Source: Armatimonadota bacterium (GTDB lineage Bacteria > Vulcanimicrobiota > JACPDS01 > JBDRKI01). From it: a DNA stretch of 33,263 nt. The notes beneath the pieces were generated by a model. It did not search any database. It saw nothing but the letters and a program-made list of their open reading frames with translations, and was not told where the DNA came from. Positions 3,299 through 33,263 of the stretch are shown here, one piece after another (the stretch's first letter is position 1; each line of letters begins with the position of its first letter). The stretch covers positions 1-33,263 of the forward strand of contig JBDRKI010000012.1 in NCBI GenBank assembly GCA_043814095.1. Direction: 5' to 3'. The translations under genes and the position numbers were made by a program.

Positions 3299-3495
3299 TG
3301 TGGATATTTTGTAAATGTATAGAAAACTCCTTCAAATTAGTTTTCCACATATTAACACAAAACAGATTTTGCTTGTGGATAACTTTAAAAAGTTCTTATA
3401 TTATAACAGAAAAAAAAATAAAAAAAAAGTTTTATTCAGAAAAAAATCCACAAAAAGGCAAAGTTTTCCACAAATTTATCCACAATTGTGCATAA
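3299..3495. promoter_or_regulatory. DnaA-box cluster and dnaA promoter (upstream half of bipartite oriC)
   Basis: Perfect boxes TGTGGATAA 3374-3382 and TTATCCACA 3476-3484; near matches at 3299, 3341, 3444, 3464, 3487; minus-strand extended -10 TGtTATAAT 3400-3408. Confidence 0.85.
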
Positions 3496-3528
3496 AAAAA
3501 AGAAACAAGGACAAAAATCCTTGTTTCT
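3494..3528 (-). terminator. intrinsic terminator
   Basis: Minus strand AGAAACAAGGA-tttttg-TCCTTGTTTCT followed by a T run. Confidence 0.7.
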
Positions 3529-3557
3529 GGCCAATAAAGGGTCATACAGGAGGAAAA

Positions 3558-3571
3558 CGAACAAAAGTTCG
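3558..3571. promoter_or_regulatory. LexA/SOS box, Gram-positive type
   Basis: CGAAC-AAAA-GTTCG, exact match to CGAAC-N4-GTTCG, abutting a minus-strand TGaTATAAT at 3572-3580. Confidence 0.65.
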
Positions 3572-3585
3572 ATTATATCAATAAC

Positions 3586-3780
3586 TCAAGCGCGGAAAAA
3601 GAAATGTTCATGCCAAGCCAGGGTTGCGCGGCAGTCTGTTAACTGTTTTTTGGTATGTAAATCTTTACTTAATTTGGTTTCTTTTGTCTCAGAATTATCA
3701 AAATCTGTAAATTTTTTAAGTGCCGGAGCAGTATTTGGCACAGAATCCGCTTTGTTTTTGGGATCAATGTTTCCGTTCAT
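3586..3780 (-). CDS. small hypothetical protein, 64 aa
   Basis: ATG preceded by AGGAAGGAG RBS and extended -10 TGtTATCAT (3804-3812); terminator downstream; no family recognised. Confidence 0.5.
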   Translation of the reverse strand: MNGNIDPKNKADSVPNTAPALKKFTDFDNSETKETKLSKDLHTKKQLTDCRATLAWHEHFFFRA

Positions 3781-3918
3781 AATAATCGCTCCTTCCTATA
3801 TTTATGATAACATACGGGACGGCAGAAAAATATCGGTCAAAAGGCCTATTTTAAGGGACCGAAAGGAGTATTTTTCAGGAAGTTAAATCAGGCGCAGTTT
3901 CAAAAAATCCTTTTAACC

Positions 3919-4000: not shown

Positions 4001-4138
4001 ATGAGCAAAAGAACTTATCAGCCGAAGAAAAAAAGCCAGAAAAGAACATCGGGCTTCCGCAAAAGAAACTCCAGCCCTACCGGCAAAAAAATATTAAAAA
4101 ACAGAAGAAAAAAGGGAAGAAAGAAACTTGCTGTTTAA
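4001..4138 (+). CDS. rpmH: 50S ribosomal protein L34 (not in the ORF track)
   Basis: [52 protein letters not shown]. Confidence 0.97.
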   Translation: MSKRTYQPKKKSQKRTSGFRKRNSSPTGKKILKNRRKKGRKKLAV

Positions 4139-4496
4139 GCTGTTAAAAAAAATAAAGAAAAACAGAGAATTTTCATATATTTACAAAAAAGGAAAAAGAA
4201 GTTATTTTGAGCACGTAAGAATCTTCCAAATCAAGACACGGGAACCAGGCGCCTTTTATGGGATAACGACTTCTAAAAAGTTTAAGAGCGCTGTTGACAG
4301 AAACAAAGCCAGAAGAAGGACCCGGAACATTCTTAAGGATGAAAGCTTCGCGGAAAAAATAAAGTTTGTCATATCAATAAAAGAGACAGCACTGGAGATT
4401 CCCTACGGGGACTTAAAAGAAGAGATTTTACAGGCCCTTTTAAAATCAAAAATAATTTTAAAAGACAGCCATCAAAGGACGGAACAGCGGCAATGA
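4128..4496 (+). CDS. rnpA: ribonuclease P protein component
   Basis: [11 protein letters not shown] and [15 protein letters not shown] (RNR motif); synteny. Confidence 0.92.
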
Positions 4497-4699
4497 AGTT
4501 TTTCTTCATATATATTATAAAGGCGTACAGGTTTTTTACTAAATACGCGCAGCCCAGATGCAGGTTCATTCCCTCGTGTTCTTCTTATGCCGCTGAAGCC
4601 ATTGAAAAACACGGGGTTTTTAAAGGATTGTATTTAAGCTCGGCCAGGATATTAAAATGCAATCCCTTGTTTCCCGGGGGATATGATCCGGTGAAATGA
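4493..4699 (+). CDS. yidD: membrane protein insertion efficiency factor
   Basis: [11 protein letters not shown]...[16 protein letters not shown]. Confidence 0.95.
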
Positions 4700-23112: not shown

Positions 23113-24291
23113 ATGATAAAAAAAAGATATCTTTATAAATATATAGCTGAAGATTTAAAAGAAAAAATGGTTTTTATAGGGGGTCCGAGGCAAGTTGGAA
23201 AAACTACTCTTGCTGAATATGTTGGCAAAAAAAAATATGAGAATTATGAATATTTAAATTGGGATGACAGACAAGACAGAAAAAACATTATAGAAAGTAA
23301 GTTTTCGTCCGATGCGCGGCTCATTATTTTTGATGAGATACATAAATACAGAACCTGGAAAAATTATATAAAAGGCCTGTTTGACAAATATAAAGACCGA
23401 TTCAATATTTTAGTAACCGGCAGTGCCAGGCTGGATTTATACCGCAAGGGCGGGGACTCATTGATGGGCAGGTACCATTATTATAAGCTTCATCCGTTTT
23501 CTATGGGAGAAGCTTTAGATTTGAATCCTGCCGTTCAGATTTTTAAAGAACTGAATTTTGTTTCGTCAAACAATGATACTATAAAGTTATTTGATGCTTT
23601 GCTTCATTTCGGAGGCTTTCCCGAGCCATTTATTAAGCAGGATGAAAAAACATTAAGGCGGTTTCATAATGAATATATAGACAGGCTGGTTAAAGAGGAT
23701 ATAAGGGATATTAATCAAATTCGCGACCTGTCTTCTTTACAGGTTCTTGTTGAAATTCTGCCGGAAAAAGTAGGCTCGCTTCTCTCGCTTCATTCATTAC
23801 AGGAGGACTTACAGGTAGCTCACAAAACCGTTTCTTCATGGATAGATATTCTGGAAAGATTTTATTTTCTTTTCAGGCTGCACCCTTTTTCTTTCAGCAC
23901 TATAAAATCTTTGCGCAGGCAGCCCAAAATGTATCTGTGGGATTGGTCCCAGATTAAGGATAAAGACAAGAGACTGGAAAATTTAATAGCATCCGCTCTT
24001 CTTAAGACGGCTCATTTTCTGCATGATGCCGAAGGCTATAAAACGCAAGTTACGTTTTTAAGGGACATAGAAGGAAGGGAAGTAGATTTCCTGGTTTTAG
24101 TTGATAAAAAACCGTGGATAGCCGTTGAAGTAAAAAATTCAAAAACTTCAATCTCATCTTCTCTTAAATACTTCGGGTCAAAATTAAATATCCCTTATAA
24201 ATACCAGATAGTGGGAGAAAAAAATATAGATTTTTTTAAAGATGATATAAGGGTAATAAGCGCGGATAAGTTCTTGACGGGATTAGCATAA
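23113..24291 (+). CDS. AAA_14/DUF4143-family ATP-binding protein
   Basis: GPRQVGKTT, IFDEIHK, VTGSA, FGGFPEP, PKMYLWD, and C-terminal REVDF..AVEVK nuclease-like motif. Confidence 0.9.
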   Translation: MIKKRYLYKYIAEDLKEKMVFIGGPRQVGKTTLAEYVGKKKYENYEYLNWDDRQDRKNIIESKFSSDARLIIFDEIHKYRTWKNYIKGLFDKYKDRFNILVTGSARLDLYRKGGDSLMGRYHYYKLHPFSMGEALDLNPAVQIFKELNFVSSNNDTIKLFDALLHFGGFPEPFIKQDEKTLRRFHNEYIDRLVKEDIRDINQIRDLSSLQVLVEILPEKVGSLLSLHSLQEDLQVAHKTVSSWIDILERFYFLFRLHPFSFSTIKSLRRQPKMYLWDWSQIKDKDKRLENLIASALLKTAHFLHDAEGYKTQVTFLRDIEGREVDFLVLVDKKPWIAVEVKNSKTSISSSLKYFGSKLNIPYKYQIVGEKNIDFFKDDIRVISADKFLTGLA

Positions 24292-24317
24292 AAAAGCCGT
24301 CCTTATTAAGAACGGCC
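24292..24317 (-). terminator. hairpin between convergent genes, T tail on minus strand
   Basis: AAAAAGCCGT-ccttattaaga-ACGGC. Confidence 0.55.
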
Positions 24318-24344
24318 CGTAAATTTATTTAACCTTAATAGTTT

Positions 24345-26468
24345 TTAAAAATTTCTAAAAGGGAAGTCTGTTTTTCTGGTAGGAAGATCTGCTGCATAGC
24401 CGTCATTTTCTATAACAACGGGTTCCCGTTCTTCTGTTATAGCAGTTTCATCTACTTCATGCGGCTTTACAGGTTCTATTTCAAGCGCTTCCCTTGCGGA
24501 TATTATGCCCGAAAGGATGTCTTTAATTTCCGCAAACTCTTCAGCTTTTTCTTCTTCGCCCTTTATTTTATCTGCTGTTTCACCTGTTTTTTTAGCTTCT
24601 TCTTTCTTTTTGGTGAGAAGCTCCTTCATTTTTCCCATAATATCCGTAAAGGATTTAAGGGCATCTTCTTTCTGTTTATTAAGCTCTTTTATGTTATTTT
24701 TCATCGCTGTGAATTTAGAAGGATCTTCTACTTTATCCTTGCCCGGTTCGGTTACGGCGTCATAATTTTTATTCTTTACGTTTTCAGCTATCTTATTTGC
24801 TTCAGGATTAACCGTGCCTTTTTCTTCCTTCTTTTTGTCAATCTGGGCTTTTGTTTTTTCGCTTGTGCCGTTAGTTATCGCGCTGAGTTTCTTTCCCCGT
24901 TCTTCTTTTACTGAATTAAGTCTTTCGGTTATGGAGGGCTTGGTTGATTTAAGATAGCTTAATATATCTTCAGTCCTTTTTATTTCTTTTTCCGCCGCTT
25001 CTTTTTCTGTCTTGGCTTTATCCATTTTTAGCTCGGCATATATTTTTTCTCTTTCATATAATACTCCTACCTTGGGTTCGGCGCTGTTTGCTAATTTTTC
25101 ATAATATTTATAATCCGCTTCAGCTGTCTTATAATCCGTCTCGGCCTTGTTCTTATCATTTTCAAATTTTGTTTTATCTTTTTCTACTTTTGTTTCTACA
25201 TCTTTCGCTAAGGATTCTTTTCCCTGGAGATTCCCTATATTCGTATCTTTATTGTAATCTTTAAGGGCGCTCTCAACTTCGTTTTTCTGCAGGTTTTCTT
25301 TGTTTGCAAGGGCACTGTGTTTGCTTAAAAAGTCTTCTTTGTTTTTGCTATCTTCGCTTTTAAGTCCGTAGGTATTTTTTATACCCTCTGTCTCTTCTTT
25401 CTGTGCCTGAGGTATTTTAGCAGGGTTGTTCTGTCCGCCCTTAACCAGGTCTTCAAGGTTGCCTTTGTGCAGTTCGCCGAAATCCTTAACTATTTTATCA
25501 TTTCTTTCCTGTATGTAATTTTTCGCGTATTCATTGCCTTTTGAATTTATTGAAGCGTCAAAATGCTTCTCGGTGTTTTCTTTGGCGCCTTCGGTATCTT
25601 TTATATCGTTTTCTATCTGCCCTATTTTTTCGTTTAAGGTGCCTTCTTTAAGTATATAATTGCCGCTTTCATCGAATTTACCGCTTACGCCGTTAATTGA
25701 TTCTTTCATTTTATCTGTATGAAGGTCGTTCTGATCTACATCGGCATATGCTATGGGTCCGCTCTGTGAAGCGACCGGAGCTTTTTCAGCGTCTTTTACA
25801 GAAGCGGCTGCGCCTGGCTTACTGGAAGATGTTGTTTCCTTGCTGTCTTTATTATCATCTTCATCTTTTCTGCCGAAGTTTCCGATAGTTTCAAAAGCTT
25901 CTCCCAGCTTATCAAATGCGCTACCGTCAGAACCTGCCGCCGCACCCATTGAGGGTATCCCGGGCATGCTTCCAGAAGGCATTGCCGCTCCGCCTGCGGG
26001 CATTGAGCCCATAGTAGGCATCTGTAGTTCAGGGAAAGACAGTCCAGGCGCAATATTAACCTGAGAAAGCGGATCCATAAGACCGGAAGATATATTTACT
26101 GAATCTTCATAAGCGCCGTTATAATTATTTGCGATGTTTTCAAATTCACTGTCAAGTTCGTTGTCCCCCAACTTTGTTTTTATAAAATCGGCAAGGTCTT
26201 CTTCTTTTATTCCTTCAAGTTCTTTTAAGAAGCTGTCATTAATCCACTTTAATCCTTCGTCTTTCTGGTCTTCGGACATCTGTGCGTATTCTTTTAAGGT
26301 TTTACCGGTTGTTTCCTGTATGTATCTTTCCAGGTTATTTACATTATAAATATTGGTATCGCCTGAAGCTCCAGGTTTCGCCGTAAGATCATTTGATTTG
26401 GCAACCATCTGGTAAGCCCATAGTTTATTAATATTGTTGTTTCCGTTGTTGTTAATCGGTGTAGTCAT
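24345..26468 (-). CDS. orphan, about 707 aa, coiled-coil with Gly/Met/Pro-rich segment
   Basis: Long ORF; GAGGTG RBS before ATG 26468 (MTTPINNNGNNN); K/E-rich helical body; no recognised motif. Confidence 0.9.
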   Translation of the reverse strand: MTTPINNNGNNNINKLWAYQMVAKSNDLTAKPGASGDTNIYNVNNLERYIQETTGKTLKEYAQMSEDQKDEGLKWINDSFLKELEGIKEEDLADFIKTKLGDNELDSEFENIANNYNGAYEDSVNISSGLMDPLSQVNIAPGLSFPELQMPTMGSMPAGGAAMPSGSMPGIPSMGAAAGSDGSAFDKLGEAFETIGNFGRKDEDDNKDSKETTSSSKPGAAASVKDAEKAPVASQSGPIAYADVDQNDLHTDKMKESINGVSGKFDESGNYILKEGTLNEKIGQIENDIKDTEGAKENTEKHFDASINSKGNEYAKNYIQERNDKIVKDFGELHKGNLEDLVKGGQNNPAKIPQAQKEETEGIKNTYGLKSEDSKNKEDFLSKHSALANKENLQKNEVESALKDYNKDTNIGNLQGKESLAKDVETKVEKDKTKFENDKNKAETDYKTAEADYKYYEKLANSAEPKVGVLYEREKIYAELKMDKAKTEKEAAEKEIKRTEDILSYLKSTKPSITERLNSVKEERGKKLSAITNGTSEKTKAQIDKKKEEKGTVNPEANKIAENVKNKNYDAVTEPGKDKVEDPSKFTAMKNNIKELNKQKEDALKSFTDIMGKMKELLTKKKEEAKKTGETADKIKGEEEKAEEFAEIKDILSGIISAREALEIEPVKPHEVDETAITEEREPVVIENDGYAADLPTRKTDFPFRNF

Positions 26469-26535
26469 AATAAACACCTCGCAAGTAAAATGTATGCAGG
26501 CATACCTTAATAACGGGTATTCCCTGCTTACTATA

Positions 26536-26613
26536 ATTATAGCATTTAAGGAGGATAATTTTAATACAAAAATGTTAACAAAATGTTAACTTTTTGTTAA
26601 CAGGGTGTTAACA
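26536..26613 (-). promoter_or_regulatory. promoter with four TGTTAACA-type repeats at 11-bp period (copy 1)
   Basis: Repeats start at 26573, 26584, 26595, 26606; extended -10 TGCTATAAT at 26544-26536. Confidence 0.85.
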
Positions 26614-26671
26614 TTTAGGCGTGTTTTTTTCTTTGTTTTAAGCTGTTTTTGGGGATGGTTTATGTGAAATA

Positions 26672-26701
26672 AAGAAGCCCTGATTCAAAATCAGGGCTTT
26701 T
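26672..26701 (-). terminator. intrinsic terminator after the 120-aa orphan
   Basis: AAGCCCTGATT-caa-AATCAGGGCTT hairpin with T-rich tails. Confidence 0.8.
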
Positions 26702-26729
26702 AACCATAGATTATTGAAGTTAATATATA

Positions 26730-27092
26730 TTATGCTCCGTAAGTCTGTCTCTGGAGGTCTCTTATTGCGCATGAAACTGCGTTCATCTGGTCCTTCTGGT
26801 TTATAAGATACAGCCACGGCAGTGTCGCGCTAGTGATATCCGTAAGGAAGTTAGCGGCTACATTCCATCCGCTCTGCGGTGCGTTAGAGGAAGTAGATAC
26901 CGCTCTCTGGTTCATTGACGGGAAAAGGCCCATGCCCATAGGCGAGAATCCGCCGCCCATCATTGATGTTAATACCAGAGTATCCAGTATGTTTGTTCCA
27001 AGAAGTCCGCCGCCCCCGAGCATTCCTCCATACATCATTGAGGAGAACATTCCGGGAAGTGCGGGTGTTATGTTCATGTTCCAGTTACTCAT
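26730..27092 (-). CDS. orphan, about 120 aa, Gly/Met-rich, ends QTYGA
   Basis: AAAGGAG RBS before ATG 27092; follows the 635-aa gene and precedes a terminator. Confidence 0.85.
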   Translation of the reverse strand: MSNWNMNITPALPGMFSSMMYGGMLGGGGLLGTNILDTLVLTSMMGGGFSPMGMGLFPSMNQRAVSTSSNAPQSGWNVAANFLTDITSATLPWLYLINQKDQMNAVSCAIRDLQRQTYGA

Positions 27093-27122
27093 ATATATCA
27101 ACTCCTTTATAATTATACCTTA

Positions 27123-29030
27123 TTATGCTCCGTAAACCTGGCCTTTAAATCCGCTCAGTTTCTGGTTTGCCGTGCCCGTTGAGAAGGCTAAGGGGTTAAT
27201 GCCCGGGTTTAAGTTCATGCCTGACATCCCAGCTGCCATTCCGAGTGAATAGTTGGCGTTACCCATGATACCCTGGTTAAGAGCTGCCATTTGATCACCT
27301 AGGCCTCCACCCATAGCTGTTACCTGTCCGGGTAACGGAGGTACAGGCGGGGGCGCCGGGAAGTTTATGCCTCCGGATGCCATGCCCATCGGCAGCATGT
27401 TGCCCATGCCGTAATTGCCGTAAGCTCCGTCTGTCGGCTTGGCTAATGCCGCAACCGCGACACCGACGGTAGCCAGTGATTTAACCAGCTCGGCAATGCC
27501 TGCCCAGTCTGTTTTTGCTTTTTCCTTCATTTCTTTTTTCTTTTCGGGATTCTTTTCTTCTTCTATTTTCTTTGCGGCTTCTTTCTGTTCTGCGAGTTTT
27601 TCGGGCAGATCTTTCTTATAATCCGAGTGGGCTATTGATAATTCATCAACAAAAGGCTTTAATTTCAGAGCACCGTCTGTTCCGACTTCGTCTTCGGTAA
27701 AGGTTATTGAGAAATCATCTTTCTCAACTTTTGCCCTTATTTCTGTTTTTCTTGTTTCTATTTTAGCGGTAGCTCCATTTTTCTTGGTGATTTCTGCCTT
27801 TACAGTCGTGTTTGTTACGGCGGCTTCCTTGCCGTTTCCGGTTATTGCGGCGAGTTCTTTAGCTTTGGCTTCGTTTGCATTTGCAAGACCGTCAGTTAAT
27901 TCTTTTTCTTTTGCTTCTGCGGCTTTTTGCATTTCCTGGAGTCTCTTGAGCTCGGCTTCGGCGTTTTTGAGTTGTTCTTCGGCTGCTGCAACATCGTCAT
28001 CTCCATCGCGTTTAGCTATAATAAGGCGTTGTTTGGAATTAGCTACATTTGCTTCTGCCTTTGATAAGGGGATAGTAAGCTGTGTTTTTACAGCACCGGA
28101 GAAATTAATCTTGCTCTGAATCTCAACCATATTAGATTCTTTGCCTTTTTCAGGTGTTAATTTCGGGCCGAGTTTTTCAGCATTATTTTCTTTATTCTGT
28201 ATAAATTCAGCTGCTTCTTTGGTATATTTTGCCGCACCGGCTTTGGTTTCGGTATCAATATCCGTCTGTTTGCCGTATTTATCAAGCACTTTCTTTGCTT
28301 CGGCAACCTGGGCTTTCTGTATGCTGCCCCTTGCGCCTTCTTCTGTTAATGTTTCAATATTAGCCGAATGGCAGAGTAAACCGTAATCGTCATTTATCTT
28401 TGTTTTCGCAAAAGTCTCATAGCTAGTGAGCATGCTTTCGCAGGTTTCGTTTCTTTTTGATTCATATGCTTTTTCAGCTGCTTTCGCAACTTTATCTATA
28501 TCTTCTTTTTTAGGCGTTTCGCCTTTTTCAAGAGCCTTTGTTACTTTATCGGCTACATCTTCTGCTTTGCCCTGTGCTTCAGGATCGGTTGACAGGGGGG
28601 GTGATGTAGGCTGTGCGGGAGCGCCTGTCGGAGCTGTTGCGGCAGGAGCAGCAGCAGCTGTTGCAGGATTGTTGCCTGTGCCGGCATATAATCCTTCAAT
28701 GAAAGAATTTTCAACACCCTTACTTTGAGCATCAAGAAATTTAGTCATGAAATTTTTAGCGGAAGGAGATCCCGATGCTTCTACCCAAGCTCCAAGTTCA
28801 TCAAGCGAATTAACGGGTGTTTTAATGTTATAAGCATTTTTCATATAATCTATGAAATGCTGATCAGCGGTTTTAAGGCTAACTTTATCAGTTGTATCAG
28901 TAACCGGTGTCTTTTGCTGTGTTTGTTCAGTAGTTACCTTTTGAGCTTGCTGAGAAACAACTTGAGCAACCTGCGGTACTATATTTCCAGTTTTAGGTGT
29001 AAGATCGCCATTAGGATTTATTATAGTCAT
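27123..29030 (-). CDS. orphan, 635 aa, coiled-coil with hydrophobic helix and Gly/Met/Pro tail, ends QVYGA
   Basis: Long ORF; AGAGGGGG RBS; hydrophobic WAGIAELVKSLATVGVAVAALA segment. Confidence 0.9.
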   Translation of the reverse strand: MTIINPNGDLTPKTGNIVPQVAQVVSQQAQKVTTEQTQQKTPVTDTTDKVSLKTADQHFIDYMKNAYNIKTPVNSLDELGAWVEASGSPSAKNFMTKFLDAQSKGVENSFIEGLYAGTGNNPATAAAAPAATAPTGAPAQPTSPPLSTDPEAQGKAEDVADKVTKALEKGETPKKEDIDKVAKAAEKAYESKRNETCESMLTSYETFAKTKINDDYGLLCHSANIETLTEEGARGSIQKAQVAEAKKVLDKYGKQTDIDTETKAGAAKYTKEAAEFIQNKENNAEKLGPKLTPEKGKESNMVEIQSKINFSGAVKTQLTIPLSKAEANVANSKQRLIIAKRDGDDDVAAAEEQLKNAEAELKRLQEMQKAAEAKEKELTDGLANANEAKAKELAAITGNGKEAAVTNTTVKAEITKKNGATAKIETRKTEIRAKVEKDDFSITFTEDEVGTDGALKLKPFVDELSIAHSDYKKDLPEKLAEQKEAAKKIEEEKNPEKKKEMKEKAKTDWAGIAELVKSLATVGVAVAALAKPTDGAYGNYGMGNMLPMGMASGGINFPAPPPVPPLPGQVTAMGGGLGDQMAALNQGIMGNANYSLGMAAGMSGMNLNPGINPLAFSTGTANQKLSGFKGQVYGA

Positions 29031-29095
29031 ATTGTCCCCCTCTAAACATTAATAAACGCAATGTTTTTGCGAACACGTCATTTCTATTTAACTAA

Positions 29096-29173
29096 ATTAT
29101 AGCATTCTCCCTATATACTGTAAATATATAAATGTTAACAAAACGTTACATTTTTGTTAACAAATTGTTAACA
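29096..29173 (-). promoter_or_regulatory. promoter with four TGTTAACA-type repeats at 11-bp period (copy 2)
   Basis: Repeats start at 29133, 29144 (degenerate), 29155, 29166; TTTACA-N17-TATAAT with extended -10 TGCTATAAT at 29104-29096. Confidence 0.85.
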
Positions 29174-29439
29174 TTTTAACCCTTATAGGGAGGGTGTTTT
29201 AGCCCTTTTAGAGGCAAAATGCTCCTAAATTGCTTGTTAAATTAAGGATATATATTATATATAGGTTACAAAAATCCTGCAAAATAAGGAAAATTTTATT
29301 AAGAGGTATTCGGGGGGTACTTCCCATATATAATGTATATATATAGGAAAAAGCTAACTGTTTCAATAAGGGGGATTGCCCCTATATATATAATATGAAC
29401 ATTCTTTTCCCGTTCCGGTATTTGTGAAATTTTAACAGC

Positions 29440-29468
29440 TTGCAGGAATAAGGCGGCGGGTGTATAAT
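29440..29468 (+). promoter_or_regulatory. putative promoter for the deoxynucleoside kinase
   Basis: TTGCAG-N17-TATAAT. Confidence 0.55.
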
Positions 29469-29568
29469 TAATTTTACAAATCACAATTACGAACGGAATG
29501 TTCTTGATATATAAAAGTGGGCTTATCACTTTTAAAAAACTAATCTGAATTAAGGGGGCTTTTTTATT

Positions 29569-30282
29569 ATGTTTATAGTAGTGAGCGGACCGATAGGTGT
29601 GGGTAAATCAACAGTAACAAGAATCTTTTCACAGATTACAGGCTTTGATGCCTTGTTTGAGAATTTCCAGGGCAACCCTTATTTAGAAAAGTTTTACGCG
29701 AACCCTGCGGAGTTCGCTTTTAAGACCCAGGCTTTCTTTTTATGGGATAGATTCAATAAGCATTACCAGACGGTTATGAGCAAACGCAATGTCGTTGCCG
29801 ACCGCTCAATATATGAAGACGCGATCTTCGCTAAAGTTTTAAACCTGCGCGGGGAGATGACAGATGACGAATATTTCAGAACATACCTTCCGCACTTTAA
29901 AATTTTAACAAATATCTTGCCTCCTCCCGATCTTATGATTTATTTAAGAGCGTCGCTGGATACCCTTTTATACCGCATAAGAAAAAGATCAAGGGACATG
30001 GAGAAAGACATTCCCGTTGATTACATGAGAACGCTTTCTGAAAATTACGAGCAGTGGATTGATGAATACCCGCATAAGAAACTTATAGTTGAAACCGATG
30101 ATATAGATTTAACTTGTGATCTCCATCACGAATGGTACCTTTTCTTTAAGGCAATATACCATAAAGTCATAAGTGAAGAACTTCCCAACCAGGCGCTGGG
30201 GATAAGTAAATTAAGAGAAGAGCTTCCCGAGATATTCTCGGCAGAAGCAGGTAAAAAGGTAAAAGCGGGAATATTTAAATAA
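29569..30282 (+). CDS. deoxynucleoside kinase (dNK; Dck/Dgk family)
   Basis: GPIGVGKST, NPYLEKFY, DRSIYED, PDLMIYL, RIRKRSRDME. Confidence 0.93.
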   Translation: MFIVVSGPIGVGKSTVTRIFSQITGFDALFENFQGNPYLEKFYANPAEFAFKTQAFFLWDRFNKHYQTVMSKRNVVADRSIYEDAIFAKVLNLRGEMTDDEYFRTYLPHFKILTNILPPPDLMIYLRASLDTLLYRIRKRSRDMEKDIPVDYMRTLSENYEQWIDEYPHKKLIVETDDIDLTCDLHHEWYLFFKAIYHKVISEELPNQALGISKLREELPEIFSAEAGKKVKAGIFK

Positions 30283-30318: not shown

Positions 30319-31188
30319 TTATTTATGAGCTATGCCAAGCGGCATAATAAGAAATTCTTCTATTTTTCTTGCCGCCTCAGACAGTTTCTCCGGAGCATGT
30401 TTTATATCGCCTTTTTTCAAGAAAGCCTTCCAGAGTGTTTGCCGGTCTGATTTTTCATCATAAATTTCTTCGGCAAACAAGGGTCTGTTTAACGGTAGTG
30501 GTGTTTTGCGATTCTTGAAAGTTTTTTTTAGTGCTTCGGTAAGATGTCTTTTGTTAAGTTTAAATCGGTGCATTATAAGCCAGATATCATAGAAGTCTTT
30601 CATTCGGCTGTTAAGAAGTCCGAGCTTAATCATGGATTCAAATTTTTCACTTACTATGCTTTCTATCGGATACCCCTTTAAGTGCGGTTTTGGGAAATCC
30701 AGAATAACGGGATAATTAATAGCTTTCGGTCCGGGGTGGATAATATCTCCAAATCCTATGTCAATCTGCATCGGGATGCGTAATCGCTCCAGGAATCCTG
30801 TAAATTTAATACGAACTCCTTCATAGTCTGCGTCTTGCTTTGTTTTTTGTCCTTTTACGGTTTCCGGAGAGAATACAAGACCGTCTGGATTTACTTTGGT
30901 TCTACAGATATTTTTTATGACTTTTTCAATAGATGCAATTCGGTTGTCATAATAAGCCGCAAGGTCTATATCAAGCGTTGTTCTGCGTTCAGGAACCCGC
31001 CAAACCGTAAGCATCAGTGCGCCTTTCAAAATAAATTTATCTGCGTATTTTGAAAGACTAAGCCTGTAGAGAAATCTTTCCATGCCGTAATATTGCAGAA
31101 TTTCCGAGAACGGCCGGTTGGTTTTTCTTGCTTCATTATAAAGGCGGGCTCGTATAGATGCCGGTAAATTCTTAATATCCTTTTTCAA
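30319..31188 (-). CDS. abiEii: AbiEii/AbiGii nucleotidyltransferase toxin (type IV TA)
   Basis: ERFLYRLS, FILKGA, RTTLDIDL, SEKFESM, NSRMKDFYD; 4-bp overlap with the antitoxin. Confidence 0.9.
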   Translation of the reverse strand: MKKDIKNLPASIRARLYNEARKTNRPFSEILQYYGMERFLYRLSLSKYADKFILKGALMLTVWRVPERRTTLDIDLAAYYDNRIASIEKVIKNICRTKVNPDGLVFSPETVKGQKTKQDADYEGVRIKFTGFLERLRIPMQIDIGFGDIIHPGPKAINYPVILDFPKPHLKGYPIESIVSEKFESMIKLGLLNSRMKDFYDIWLIMHRFKLNKRHLTEALKKTFKNRKTPLPLNRPLFAEEIYDEKSDRQTLWKAFLKKGDIKHAPEKLSEAARKIEEFLIMPLGIAHK

Positions 31189-31787
31189 AGAATAGCCTCC
31201 AGCAAAGGTTTTATTATATTATCAACCCGGCAAATCTTGGCGTATTCCATAATTTTTTTGGGGCTTATATTTTTTTCGGCAACGGCTATTTTAAGAGCCT
31301 CCCGTGCAGTGTTTATGCCGATTTTATTGCGGAATTTAAAACAATCAGCTACTGTTTTTGCGAGGCCGTATACTCTGATTTTATATCCTTCGATTTTATG
31401 TTCTTCTATTCCGGCTTTCCATGATTTGACATCGAAATGATAAAATTTTACCGGCGGATATTTGATTTTGTATGCATGCGCACCCTTTGGAATGGCTATA
31501 TCTACATGTTTGGGTATTTCAACTGTTGCCTCATGAAAAGAAAGTGCAGACAGGAGGCAAACAATTCCTCTGGGTGCCTGAAGCTGTGTGATAACAAGAT
31601 CGGGATGTTTTTCAATATTATGGCCGGTTAGCCCGTAAAGTCCTTTAGCAATTTTTTCAATTTTATTTTCTTTTACAAGAAGATTAAGTGAATCAGGATG
31701 AAATCCAGCATTAATAATGGCCGAGAATCTGGTTATTTCGCCCTTGCTTTTGAAGAAATCTATAAGTTTCTGAGATTTTTTTCGCAC
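31185..31787 (-). CDS. abiEi: AbiEi antitoxin/transcriptional regulator (type IV TA)
   Basis: IEKIAKGLY, CLLSALSFH, KTVADCFKFRNKIG; GGAGGG RBS and GTG start. Confidence 0.9.
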   Translation of the reverse strand: MRKKSQKLIDFFKSKGEITRFSAIINAGFHPDSLNLLVKENKIEKIAKGLYGLTGHNIEKHPDLVITQLQAPRGIVCLLSALSFHEATVEIPKHVDIAIPKGAHAYKIKYPPVKFYHFDVKSWKAGIEEHKIEGYKIRVYGLAKTVADCFKFRNKIGINTAREALKIAVAEKNISPKKIMEYAKICRVDNIIKPLLEAIL

Positions 31788-31866: not shown

Positions 31867-33263
31867 TGTCATTTAAGAATTAAAAGTGCACACTTTTAAT
31901 GGGATTTAAAGTTTAAAAGTGCACACCTAAAAAGCTATAATTTAAAGTAAAAAACAAGGGGGATTTAAATTATGGCTCAGTTACACAAAAAATTCACAGA
32001 CGACCAGGTTAAAGAACTAATTAAGCGGTATTTGAACAAGGAAATTGAAAGAACATACATTCAGGAAATTTTGGGGATTAAGAAAAGACGTTTTTTTGTC
32101 CTTATTAAAAAATACAAAGAGAATCCCTGCGAATTTTCAGTTCAATATACCAGGAAAGTCAAAAGCCGAGAAATATCAAAAGATATTGAAAAAAATATAT
32201 TAAAGGAATTGAAAACAGACAAAAAGCTAATAGAAGATAAAAACGTACCTTTAAGTCGTTACAATTACAGTTATGTTAAACACATTCTTGAAGAAAAACA
32301 TAAACAGAAAGTATCTCTGCCGACTATTATTGATAGAGCTAAAAAGCTCGGCTTCTATTTAAAAAAGAAAAAGAAGAAAGGGCATGATAGAGAAGTATTA
32401 ACTAATTATGCAGGGGAATTGATCCAGCATGATTCTTCTTACCATCTATGGGCGCCATACGCTAAAGAAAAATGGTATCTTATTACTTCTTTAGACGATT
32501 TCAGCCGGTATCTTCTTTATGCCGTACTCTTAAAAAAAGAAAGTACATGGGCCCATATAAACGCCGTACAATCAGTGTTTCTCAGGCACGGGCTGCCTTA
32601 CAGCTATTATGTGGACTGCCACTCAATATTCAGATTTGTTCAGGGAAGAGATTCTTTCCGACGTAATCATTACAAACTGACCGACGATATAAATCCCCAA
32701 TGGAAGCAGGTTATGGATGACTGCGGAGTTAAGATAACCTATGCCTTGTCTCCGCAGGCTAAAGGCAAAATTGAGAGGCCTTACGGCTGGATTCAGGACA
32801 GACTTGTAAGAACCTGTGTAAGAGAAGATATCTCAGACATAAAACAAGCACAAAGAATACTTAACAGAGAGGTTCATAGGTATAATTACCAGCAGGTTCA
32901 TTCTACAACTCTAGAAGTGCCTCATTTTAGATTCCAAAGAGCATTGAAAGAGAAAAAGTCTTTATTCAGAAAATTCACAGTAAAACCGCCTTATCAGTCT
33001 GTTAAAGACATCTTTTGTCTTAAAGCTGATAGAACTATAGATCCTTACAGAAAAATCTCAATCAATAACCTACAGCTCAAGGTTAATGGAGCAATCCCGA
33101 AAGAAACAGTAAATCTCCGTATCTATCCCATAAATAACCAGATATCAGAGATAAGATTTTGGCGCAGAGGCAAACTTATAGATGTCCAGAGAGTTAAAAA
33201 TAGTGAATTACAGCTTGTGCACTTTTAATTCTTAAAGTGTGCACTTTTAAAATTTAACTAACA
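31867..33263 (+). mobile_element. insertion sequence, IS1202-like (ISNCY), 1397 bp
   Basis: TGT...ACA termini; 27-bp terminal IRs 22/27 identical; TTAAAAGTGCACA occurs twice at each end. Confidence 0.88.
31972..33228 (+). CDS. DDE transposase, IS1202/ISNCY type
   Basis: GELIQHDSSYHLW, LDDFSR, HGLPYSYYVDCHSIF, SPQAKGKIER..IQDRL. Confidence 0.9.
   Translation: MAQLHKKFTDDQVKELIKRYLNKEIERTYIQEILGIKKRRFFVLIKKYKENPCEFSVQYTRKVKSREISKDIEKNILKELKTDKKLIEDKNVPLSRYNYSYVKHILEEKHKQKVSLPTIIDRAKKLGFYLKKKKKKGHDREVLTNYAGELIQHDSSYHLWAPYAKEKWYLITSLDDFSRYLLYAVLLKKESTWAHINAVQSVFLRHGLPYSYYVDCHSIFRFVQGRDSFRRNHYKLTDDINPQWKQVMDDCGVKITYALSPQAKGKIERPYGWIQDRLVRTCVREDISDIKQAQRILNREVHRYNYQQVHSTTLEVPHFRFQRALKEKKSLFRKFTVKPPYQSVKDIFCLKADRTIDPYRKISINNLQLKVNGAIPKETVNLRIYPINNQISEIRFWRRGKLIDVQRVKNSELQLVHF

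Follow-up and report, generated by a model that had tools for sequence, protein, structure and literature searches.

An orphan three-gene module with PHO-box-like promoter arrays in the replication origin region of an Armatimonadota contig

In Bacillus, the PHO box is described as a set of four hexamers that resemble TT(A/T/C)ACA and recur every 11 bp (PMC11870197), and 11-nt direct repeat units are given as the general form of PHO boxes (PMC4415409). The E. coli PHO box lies 10 bp upstream of the -10 element, and the cyanobacterial SphR box is quoted as CTTAACCT with a 3-bp linker (PMC1906773). The consensus quoted for WalR is TGTWAH-N5-TGTWAH, and the Wal regulon is reported to be rich in envelope and hypothetical proteins (PMC9210968). 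A perfect SaeR site is given as GTTAAN6GTTAA (PMC5083920), and PhoPR is reported to govern wall polymers and secreted scavenging enzymes (PMC6232261). These systems were compared with a module of three genes, A, B and C, on contig JBDRKI010000012.1 of an Armatimonadota bacterium (assembly GCA_043814095.1). The window is the whole stretch of DNA that was analyzed, 33,263 nucleotides (33 kb). The module consists of two transcription units on the minus strand, A-B and C, each preceded by an array that resembles a PHO box. Coordinates are collected in Table 1.

Promoter arrays of the two transcription units

A preliminary description of this locus, made from the DNA letters, had proposed three genes in two units (635 + 120 aa; 707 aa) with one promoter design, and this was borne out. 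Both core promoters, P_A and P_C, have a TG-extended -10 element, and the regions upstream of A and C align from the array through the -10, with a common 62-nt block of 82% identity. The distance from the array to TGCTATAAT is 32 nt in both promoters. The core of each array is the octamer TGTTAACA, a palindrome, repeated at an exact 11-bp period. In P_A the array occupies approximately -82 to -44 relative to the inferred start. The description had also called the module inducible, a reasonable term since the promoter design is of the kind bound by two-component response regulators.

Arrays were read on the coding strand and scored for their match to four TT[ATC]ACA hexamers with a period of 11 bp, the maximum being 24. 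P_C scored 24 and P_A scored 22, compared with a best score of 18–21 per window in 50 shuffled windows. No further site in the 33 kb scores 22, so these arrays are the only two. The pattern TGTTAACANNNTGTTAACAAAAA was likewise found at these two sites only, with 0.00 expected. Of the 16 GTTAAC hexamers in the window 7 sit in the two arrays, while 7.2 ± 2.7 hexamers are expected in the whole window. The region holds no tandem DNA repeats besides the two arrays.

The arrays share with the B. subtilis Pho promoters, as described for the core site of phosphorylated PhoP, the four TT(A/T/C)ACA hexamers, the 11-bp period, the coding-strand orientation and a good -10 element. Both contain the hexamers and period of the Bacillus-type PHO box (24/24 and 22/24). 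Because TGTTAACA is palindromic, TGTWAH-N5-TGTWAH and GTTAAN6GTTAA are also matched perfectly within the arrays. Since the same array fits a PHO box, WalR sites and SaeR sites, robust inference stops at an OmpR/PhoB-family response regulator. Control of both units by one such regulator is well supported by these arrays, and the binding itself is predicted. The boxes of CodY, MogR, PrfA/Crp-type regulators, ComK, TnrA and CopY were considered and dropped on inspection of the sequence, as their consensus sites differ in spacing or core.

The array in other genomes and the choice of regulator

A loose form of the array was used to scan 185,579 species genomes once, and 55 loci were recovered, none of them from the genome of the window itself. 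The best fit to four TGTTAACA octamers (32/32, 11-bp period) was locus L047, from a metagenome-assembled genome (MAG) of Dehalococcoidia. Its array (L047:1953-2041, minus strand) is 10 nt from TATAAT and directly upstream of pstS and an ABC permease gene. The pstS gene (L047:1137-1952, minus strand) matched TIGR02136 with 235.7 bits against a cut-off of 206.6. The L047 array is a textbook-looking candidate PHO box, and its octamer is the same as in the window.

Three MAGs labelled Synergistia or Vulcanimicrobiota rank next. Their loci (L008:2001-2100, L010:2001-2100 and L041:2001-2114) contain four to five GTTAAC hexamers at an 11-bp period together with TGGTATAAT, and the array precedes a conserved 163-aa membrane protein that has no Pfam or NCBIfam family. 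In tetranucleotide usage L041, L010 and L008 are the nearest to the window among the 55 loci (0.64–0.67; next locus 0.60). They may belong to the wider lineage of the window, the tetranucleotide margin being too weak to name a phylum. In a further locus, L053, a looser GTTAAC array stands before a DltB-like gene. No relative of A, B or C is encoded in the 55 array loci (best tblastn E 0.065). The array of four TGTTAACA octamers, present here, before pstS of L047 and in the three further MAGs, offers a handle for regulon prediction in little-known monoderm phyla.

At least six other loci (L002, L012, L018, L035, L036 and L042), from one Nitrososphaeraceae MAG, share an element of approximately 100 nt with four GTTAAC hexamers at an 11-bp period. 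Its appearance is that of a dispersed repeat and not of a promoter of the bacterial type.

Within the OmpR/PhoB family, PhoP, responding to phosphate starvation, would be the most likely regulator, a choice for and against which we would put about equal weight. Four hexamers at an 11-bp period are the hallmark of the Bacillus PHO box as described, and pstS is the only array-adjacent gene found whose regulon membership is known. A number of observations weigh against PhoP. The perfect WalR and SaeR sites mean that phosphate is not the sole possible signal. PHO boxes are described beside the -35 or in its place, whereas the last hexamer of the P_A and P_C arrays ends 31–32 nt upstream of TATAAT. 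Both arrays lie upstream of a recognizable -35-like hexamer and do not substitute for it. They are 22 nt further upstream than the array of the L047 pstS promoter, or approximately two helical turns further from the -10, an offset that keeps the helical phase. Compared with the B. subtilis core site, too, they lie further upstream. The products differ as well, as the trio encodes orphan low-complexity proteins and not the phosphatases, transporters or wall-polymer enzymes of B. subtilis Pho promoters. No phoPR, pst, pho or two-component gene was found in the window, and its PhoU-like/Pit operon has no such array. The majority of the 55 array loci are unrelated tandem repeats. A Pho gene was found in only 1/65 array-adjacent open reading frames (ORFs) scanned, out of 75 listed; the ten omitted were near-duplicates from sister loci, and the threshold was E ≤ 1e-6 for the first 16 ORFs and E ≤ 1e-30 for the remaining 49.

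The genes and products could be as described here and be controlled by a WalR-, SaeR- or other OmpR-family regulator that senses the state of the cell wall or an external cue. The octamers match both consensus sequences perfectly, and placement of the array upstream of the -35-like hexamer, rather than in place of the -35, would suit such a regulator. So would the array's company elsewhere, since the same design precedes the 163-aa membrane protein, which is not a known Pho gene, and the looser version precedes the DltB-like gene. The WalR and SaeR regulons are described as holding many envelope and exported proteins of unknown function, a further likeness, whereas the trio lacks the signal peptides of the exoproteins in these regulons. 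The quoted WalR and SaeR consensus sequences are pairs of half-sites, whereas the trio arrays have four in phase, as in the Bacillus PHO box, and the one regulon member found beside an array is pstS. We consider this alternative possible but somewhat doubtful. If PhoP is the regulator, then the trio would add to the phosphate-starvation response a type of protein unseen in model Pho regulons, one that is non-enzymatic and has much low-complexity sequence. Such proteins would point to a structural means by which the envelope or cytoplasm adapts to a shortage of phosphate.

Composition, relationship and possible role of the proteins

A, B and C look like real, native genes, because ORFs of 635 and 707 aa come with ribosome-binding sites and terminators and their codon fit falls in the housekeeping range of the window (0.063–0.131 for the trio; 0.059–0.228 for 18 housekeeping genes). 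A ribosome-binding site precedes each gene; that of gene B is AAAGGAG, 8 nt upstream. As the preliminary description had said, the trio is orphan and without catalytic motifs. No family was found for any of the three in Pfam, NCBIfam, PHROGs or PADLOC (Pfam and PADLOC at E ≤ 0.1). Pfam searches at E ≤ 10 returned only noise, the best match being DUF4355 to residues 1–135 of C (E 0.0031, below its cut-off). The absence of families in four hidden Markov model libraries points to non-enzymatic products. A word-index search of 5.8 billion clusters with A, B and C, and an exhaustive phmmer search of 1.84 billion representatives with A, returned only the queries themselves. No match was obtained by tblastn with A, B and C in 50,697 phage and 72,556 plasmid records. 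A PDB sequence search with the three whole proteins and five sub-regions gave nothing below E 0.1. The Atlas models of A and C are low-confidence (mean predicted local distance difference test score 0.47 and 0.53, respectively) and have no fold neighbor above a template modeling (TM) score of 0.29 by query. In the literature nothing was found on proteins resembling A, B or C. Atlas feature neighbors of the proteins, "hypothetical protein" clusters mostly from Candidatus Melainabacteria, had values of 0.76–0.81, the noise range of the tool, and were not used.

Sampling of the lineage is very sparse: with approximately 15 billion sequences clustered at 90%, six proteins of the window (enolase, MnmG and DnaA among them) have few or no companions in their clusters. 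Yet housekeeping proteins of such a lineage would still find distant relatives, and A finds none. The orphan status may have a simple cause, namely disordered proteins that evolve fast, in a lineage that has not been sampled. A lack of relatives is common for such proteins and by itself is no proof of a new system.

Each protein carries a Gly/Met/Pro-rich tract beside a helix, as originally described (Table 1). The tail of A has 10 Met, 22 Gly, 11 Pro and 5 charged residues in 105, the tract of C has 7 Met, 10 Gly, 8 Pro and 3 charged residues in 58, and the tract of B, which makes up 62% of the protein, has 11 Met, 14 Gly and 2 charged residues in 75. The central regions of A and C (approximately 400 aa) are different in character, with 39–41% charged residues, and by the charge-hydropathy boundary they class as disordered. 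Amphipathic-helix periodicity is strong in C (period 3.6, z 10.8; lag-7 autocorrelation z 3.9) and present in A (period 3.67, z 4.4). The preliminary description had assigned long K/E/A coiled coils to these regions. Their helical and amphipathic character is supported, but a long canonical coiled coil overstates the case because heptad regularity is patchy, with only 14–22% of 28-residue windows above the shuffled 95th percentile. No internal protein repeats were found in the three sequences.

Hydropathy was examined with the Kyte-Doolittle scale in 19-residue windows (KD19). No 19-residue segment within the N-terminal 20 residues of A, B or C exceeds 1.0, in agreement with the lack of a Sec signal noted before, and no Sec, Tat or lipoprotein signal was seen in the three proteins as judged by hydropathy and sequence. 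The only segment with a KD19 above 1.6 is the hydrophobic helix of A (1.8), which is preceded by KKKEMKEKAK. The hydrophobic stretches of B are weak (KD19 approximately 1.2), and the scan found no hydrophobic segment anywhere in C.

A and C look like distant paralogs, with mixed evidence. BLASTP aligned them with 24% identity over 259 aa (E = 3e-4). Smith-Waterman scores were 172–180 against a block-shuffled mean of 100–108 (z 5.5–5.8), a score reached by 0/300 shuffles, and their global alignment is collinear. Both have the same order of parts: the polar N-terminal motif, a small domain, a low-complexity tract (Ala/Pro in A, Met/Gly/Pro/Ser in C), the charged helical region and the C-proximal helix. 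In the six frames of the window and the 55 array loci, no sequence other than A and C has the motifs MTxINxNG and DLTxKxG. Against paralogy, C was absent from the phmmer report with A even at E ≤ 10, hhalign of A and C gave only P = 0.012, and the N-terminal domains alone are not significantly similar (264/1000 shuffles reach the score). A and B are alike at their ends. The last 20 nt of A (27122-27141) and B (26728-26747) are 90% identical, 14 nt including the stop codon being identical, and thus both proteins end in the same Q[VT]YGA-stop. In addition, hhalign aligned the tail of A with the tract of B at P = 0.0052 and 35% identity over 57 columns. The common Q-x-YGA may be a sorting or degradation tag, or the trace of a duplication.

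The best explanation, which we favor tentatively and with low confidence, is that A, B and C are PhoP-activated, self-associating structural or scaffold proteins at the membrane or envelope. One OmpR/PhoB-family regulator, likeliest PhoP, would switch on A-B and C together by binding the four TTAACA repeats, which follow each other at intervals of one helical turn ahead of a strong promoter with an extended -10. The products would act as scaffolds at the cytoplasmic membrane or envelope under phosphate or envelope stress, and export would not be required. A would be held at the membrane by its hydrophobic helix, with the lysine-rich flank inside. This placement is weakened by the helix itself, which contains E and K, is borderline hydrophobic (Eisenberg <H> 0.57) and aligns with the C-proximal helix of C, which is non-hydrophobic and amphipathic only.

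Self-association is suggested, with low confidence, by amino acid composition only, which counts against the scaffold proposal. Methionine-rich low-complexity domains of Pab1, Pbp1 and TDP-43 are reported to promote or tune self-association (PMC8394241). The tail of A and the tracts of B and C all have this Met-rich, low-charge, low-complexity composition. Like the described domains of Pab1, Pbp1/ataxin-2 and the C-terminal domain of TDP-43, they are rich in Met, Gly, Pro and Asn, almost uncharged and beside a short hydrophobic helix, and the Pab1 segment printed in that source is very similar in composition. The likeness is one of composition and not of homology, as the trio is bacterial and without RNA-binding domains. 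By analogy with these eukaryotic condensate scaffolds, weak multivalent contacts would come from the Met/Gly-rich tracts of the three proteins. The trio would offer a bacterial test case for methionine-rich low-complexity domains, so far studied mainly in such eukaryotic scaffolds. Bacterial coiled-coil-rich or intermediate-filament-like proteins such as crescentin and FilP also combine a long charged helical region with low-complexity flanks and lack an enzymatic domain. They are unlike A, B and C in that the heptad signal of the trio is patchy and there is no sequence similarity, though no search aimed at them was made.

A, B and C might instead be soluble cytoplasmic stress proteins, either hydrophilin-like or late embryogenesis abundant (LEA)-like or generic disordered polyampholytes, with no role at the membrane or envelope. 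The charge and predicted disorder of the central regions, the low-confidence Atlas models, a promoter of stress-responsive type and the absence of any hydrophobic segment from C all agree with this. It is nevertheless improbable, as the 3.6-residue periodicity of C points to packed amphipathic helices and not random coil, the Met/Gly/Leu tracts are hydrophobic rather than hydrophilic, A carries a 22-residue hydrophobic helix, and no LEA or other stress family was matched.

The preliminary description had favored a secreted translocon, pore or effector set, and this part is not supported: there is no signal, no family match at E ≤ 10, no apparatus gene in the window and no second hydrophobic component. 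Type III translocators (SctE/SctB) have transmembrane helices and are encoded beside TPR-type chaperone and apparatus genes. The trio matched no translocator profile (0 in Pfam at E ≤ 0.1, 0 in NCBIfam, nothing relevant at E ≤ 10), no TPR-type chaperone or type III apparatus gene was found among the window ORFs, and there is one borderline hydrophobic helix in A and none in C. For ClyA/XaxAB/Hbl-Nhe toxins there was no Pfam match at E ≤ 10 and no PDB match below E 0.1. WXG100/LXG and phage ejection families also gave no Pfam match at E ≤ 10, and B is mostly a low-complexity tract, not a helical hairpin. What the trio shares with SctE/SctB, ClyA/XaxAB/Hbl and WXG100/LXG proteins is the lack of a Sec signal, amphipathic helices, one hydrophobic helix in A and co-expression. 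It differs from them in lacking a profile match, a hydrophobic helix in C and nearby apparatus or chaperone genes. B, moreover, is a 120-aa low-complexity protein, neither a paralog nor a partner of chaperone-like kind.

Sec-independent export of the trio through a flagellar, type VII or other pathway, to act on a membrane as a translocon, a multi-component alpha-helical pore or an effector set, has some points in its favor. The regulons of PhoP, WalR and SaeR, as described, are dominated by extracytoplasmic proteins. The polar N-terminal peptide of A and C, or the Q-x-YGA end of A and B, could be an unrecognized sorting signal; the almost charge-free tracts would ease translocation, and amphipathic helices are present. 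We regard such export as unlikely. No Sec-like N-terminal hydrophobic segment exists, and translocator, ClyA/Hbl-type, WXG100/LXG and ejection-protein families gave 0 matches at E ≤ 10 and none in PHROGs or PDB. The 33-kb window has no secretion apparatus or chaperone gene, C lacks a hydrophobic stretch and B has only weak ones, and the Atlas models match no fold above the TM score given above. An injectisome is also unexpected given the probable monoderm envelope.

A variant that we think less probable still is a phosphate-starvation envelope module of an almost unsampled monoderm lineage, in which the low-complexity tails lie outside the membrane or are exported and form a membrane-active or wall-embedded meshwork or pore. 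Its export signal would be the N-terminal MTxINxNG/DLTxKxG or the C-terminal QxYGA. Such proteins would be envelope or secretion substrates of a new, low-complexity class in bacteria. The module is unusual, well defined and testable, and of moderate interest.

Setting of the module in the origin region

Table 1. Positions of the module, its signals, protein segments and neighboring genes. Residues are numbered within each protein.
Feature	Window position	Strand	Residues	Details
Gene A	27123..29030	(-)		635 aa; ends in double stop codon
Gene B	26730..27092	(-)		120 aa from ATG; 123 aa from upstream TTG
Gene C	24345..26468	(-)		707 aa from ATG; 710 aa from upstream GTG
Putative response-regulator (PHO-box-like) array of P_A	29133..29171	(-)		TTAACA, TTAACA, GTAACG, TTAACA; 11-bp period; 22/24
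Putative response-regulator (PHO-box-like) array of P_C	26573..26611	(-)		four perfect TTAACA hexamers; 11-bp period; 24/24
Core promoter P_A	29096..29124	(-)		TTTACA-17-TATAAT, TG-extended; TGCTATAAT at 29096-29104; consensus scan
Core promoter P_C	26536..26564	(-)		TTAAAA-17-TATAAT, TG-extended; TGCTATAAT at 26536-26544; consensus scan
Intrinsic terminator of A-B unit	26675..26699	(-)		11-pair stem, then T run
Intrinsic terminator after C	24294..24318	(-)		11-pair
A, N-terminal motif			1-15	MTIINPNG-DLTPKTG
A, small N domain, then Ala/Pro linker			after N-terminal motif	
A, charged helical region			151-508	
A, hydrophobic helix	27441-27506		509-530	
A, Gly/Met/Pro/Asn tail	27126-27440		531-635	ends QVYGA
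B, Gly/Met/Leu/Ser tract	26868-27092		1-75	nearly uncharged
B, helix-prone C-terminal part			75-120	45-residue end; ends QTYGA
B, helix quoted in preliminary description			75-97	
C, N-terminal motifs			1-9 and 27-33	MTTPINNNG and DLTAKPG
C, acidic N domain			between N-terminal motif and tract	
C, Gly/Met/Pro/Ser tract	25914-26087		128-185	
C, amphipathic helix	25872-25919		184-199	
C, charged amphipathic-helical region			246-640	
C, C-proximal helix	24477-24539		644-664	aligns with A 509-530; followed by acidic/Pro tail
PDC-S01 candidate defence ATPase (AAA_14/DUF4143)	23113-24291			E 7.8e-56
Deoxynucleoside kinase	29569-30282			weak VakA match
AbiEii/AbiEi, overlapping pair	30319-31787			E 5.2e-96 and 5.8e-66
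ISNCY-family transposase	31972-33228			contig end

The window is the replication origin region. Its gene order is dnaN-dnaA, rpmH, rnpA, yidD, a short yidC (257 aa), jag, mnmE, mnmG, rsmG, parA and parB, and it further contains dnaX, ybaB, recR, ksgA, genes for an LCP protein and a PrsA-like lipoprotein with lipobox, mazG, the PhoU-like/Pit pair and enolase. Six DnaA boxes (≤ 1 mismatch to TTATCCACA) are clustered at 3299-3495 upstream of dnaA and two more lie at 1784-1881 between dnaA and dnaN, the window having 14 in total where 7.9 are expected. Cumulative GC skew reaches its minimum at approximately 2–3 kb. The DnaA-box cluster region is the chromosomal origin. The trio is just beyond the origin core, and its transcription runs head-on into the replication fork. 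No gene for secretion, a chaperone or a regulator was found in the 33 kb.

The short YidC, the LCP protein and PrsA suggest that the cell is monoderm and Bacillota-like, the phylum not being settled. The enolase had its best PDB match in 4a3r (639 bits), which we take to be a Bacillus enzyme, against 546 bits for 4rop, presumably a cyanobacterial one.

The neighbors listed in Table 1 raise the question of whether the trio belongs to the cargo of a defence island or mobile element, perhaps as an abortive-infection effector module, and has a host-type promoter by chance. The PDC-S01 ATPase, AbiEii/AbiEi and the ISNCY transposase lie nearby, it runs head-on to replication from the nearby origin, and no relatives were found anywhere. 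The trio itself, however, matched 0 PADLOC models at E ≤ 0.1, though its neighbors match PADLOC, and had 0 significant matches in PHROGs and none in the phage and plasmid records. Its codon use is native. There are no insertion-type flanking repeats, the sole flanking inverted pair being the two terminators. We consider a cargo origin very unlikely.

The terminator after C is probably bidirectional, because it is placed between convergent genes. Rfam gave no match over 24000-29700 at E ≤ 1, and the folds of the 5' untranslated regions are unremarkable (z -1.6 and -1.3). Between P_A and the kinase gene is a 390-nt AT-rich non-coding stretch (29180-29568) with TATATA-type palindromes. It has no Rfam match and contains a second promoter-like site, TTTGCA-18-TATAAT, at 29283..29254. 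Near the origin, a 132-aa GTG ORF at 3488-3886 overlaps the DnaA-box cluster, has no family and is probably not a gene. The rpmH gene (45 aa, 4001-4138) and the yidD-like gene (68 aa, 4493-4699), both small and conserved, lie between dnaA and yidC and are absent from the list of ORFs of 100 aa.

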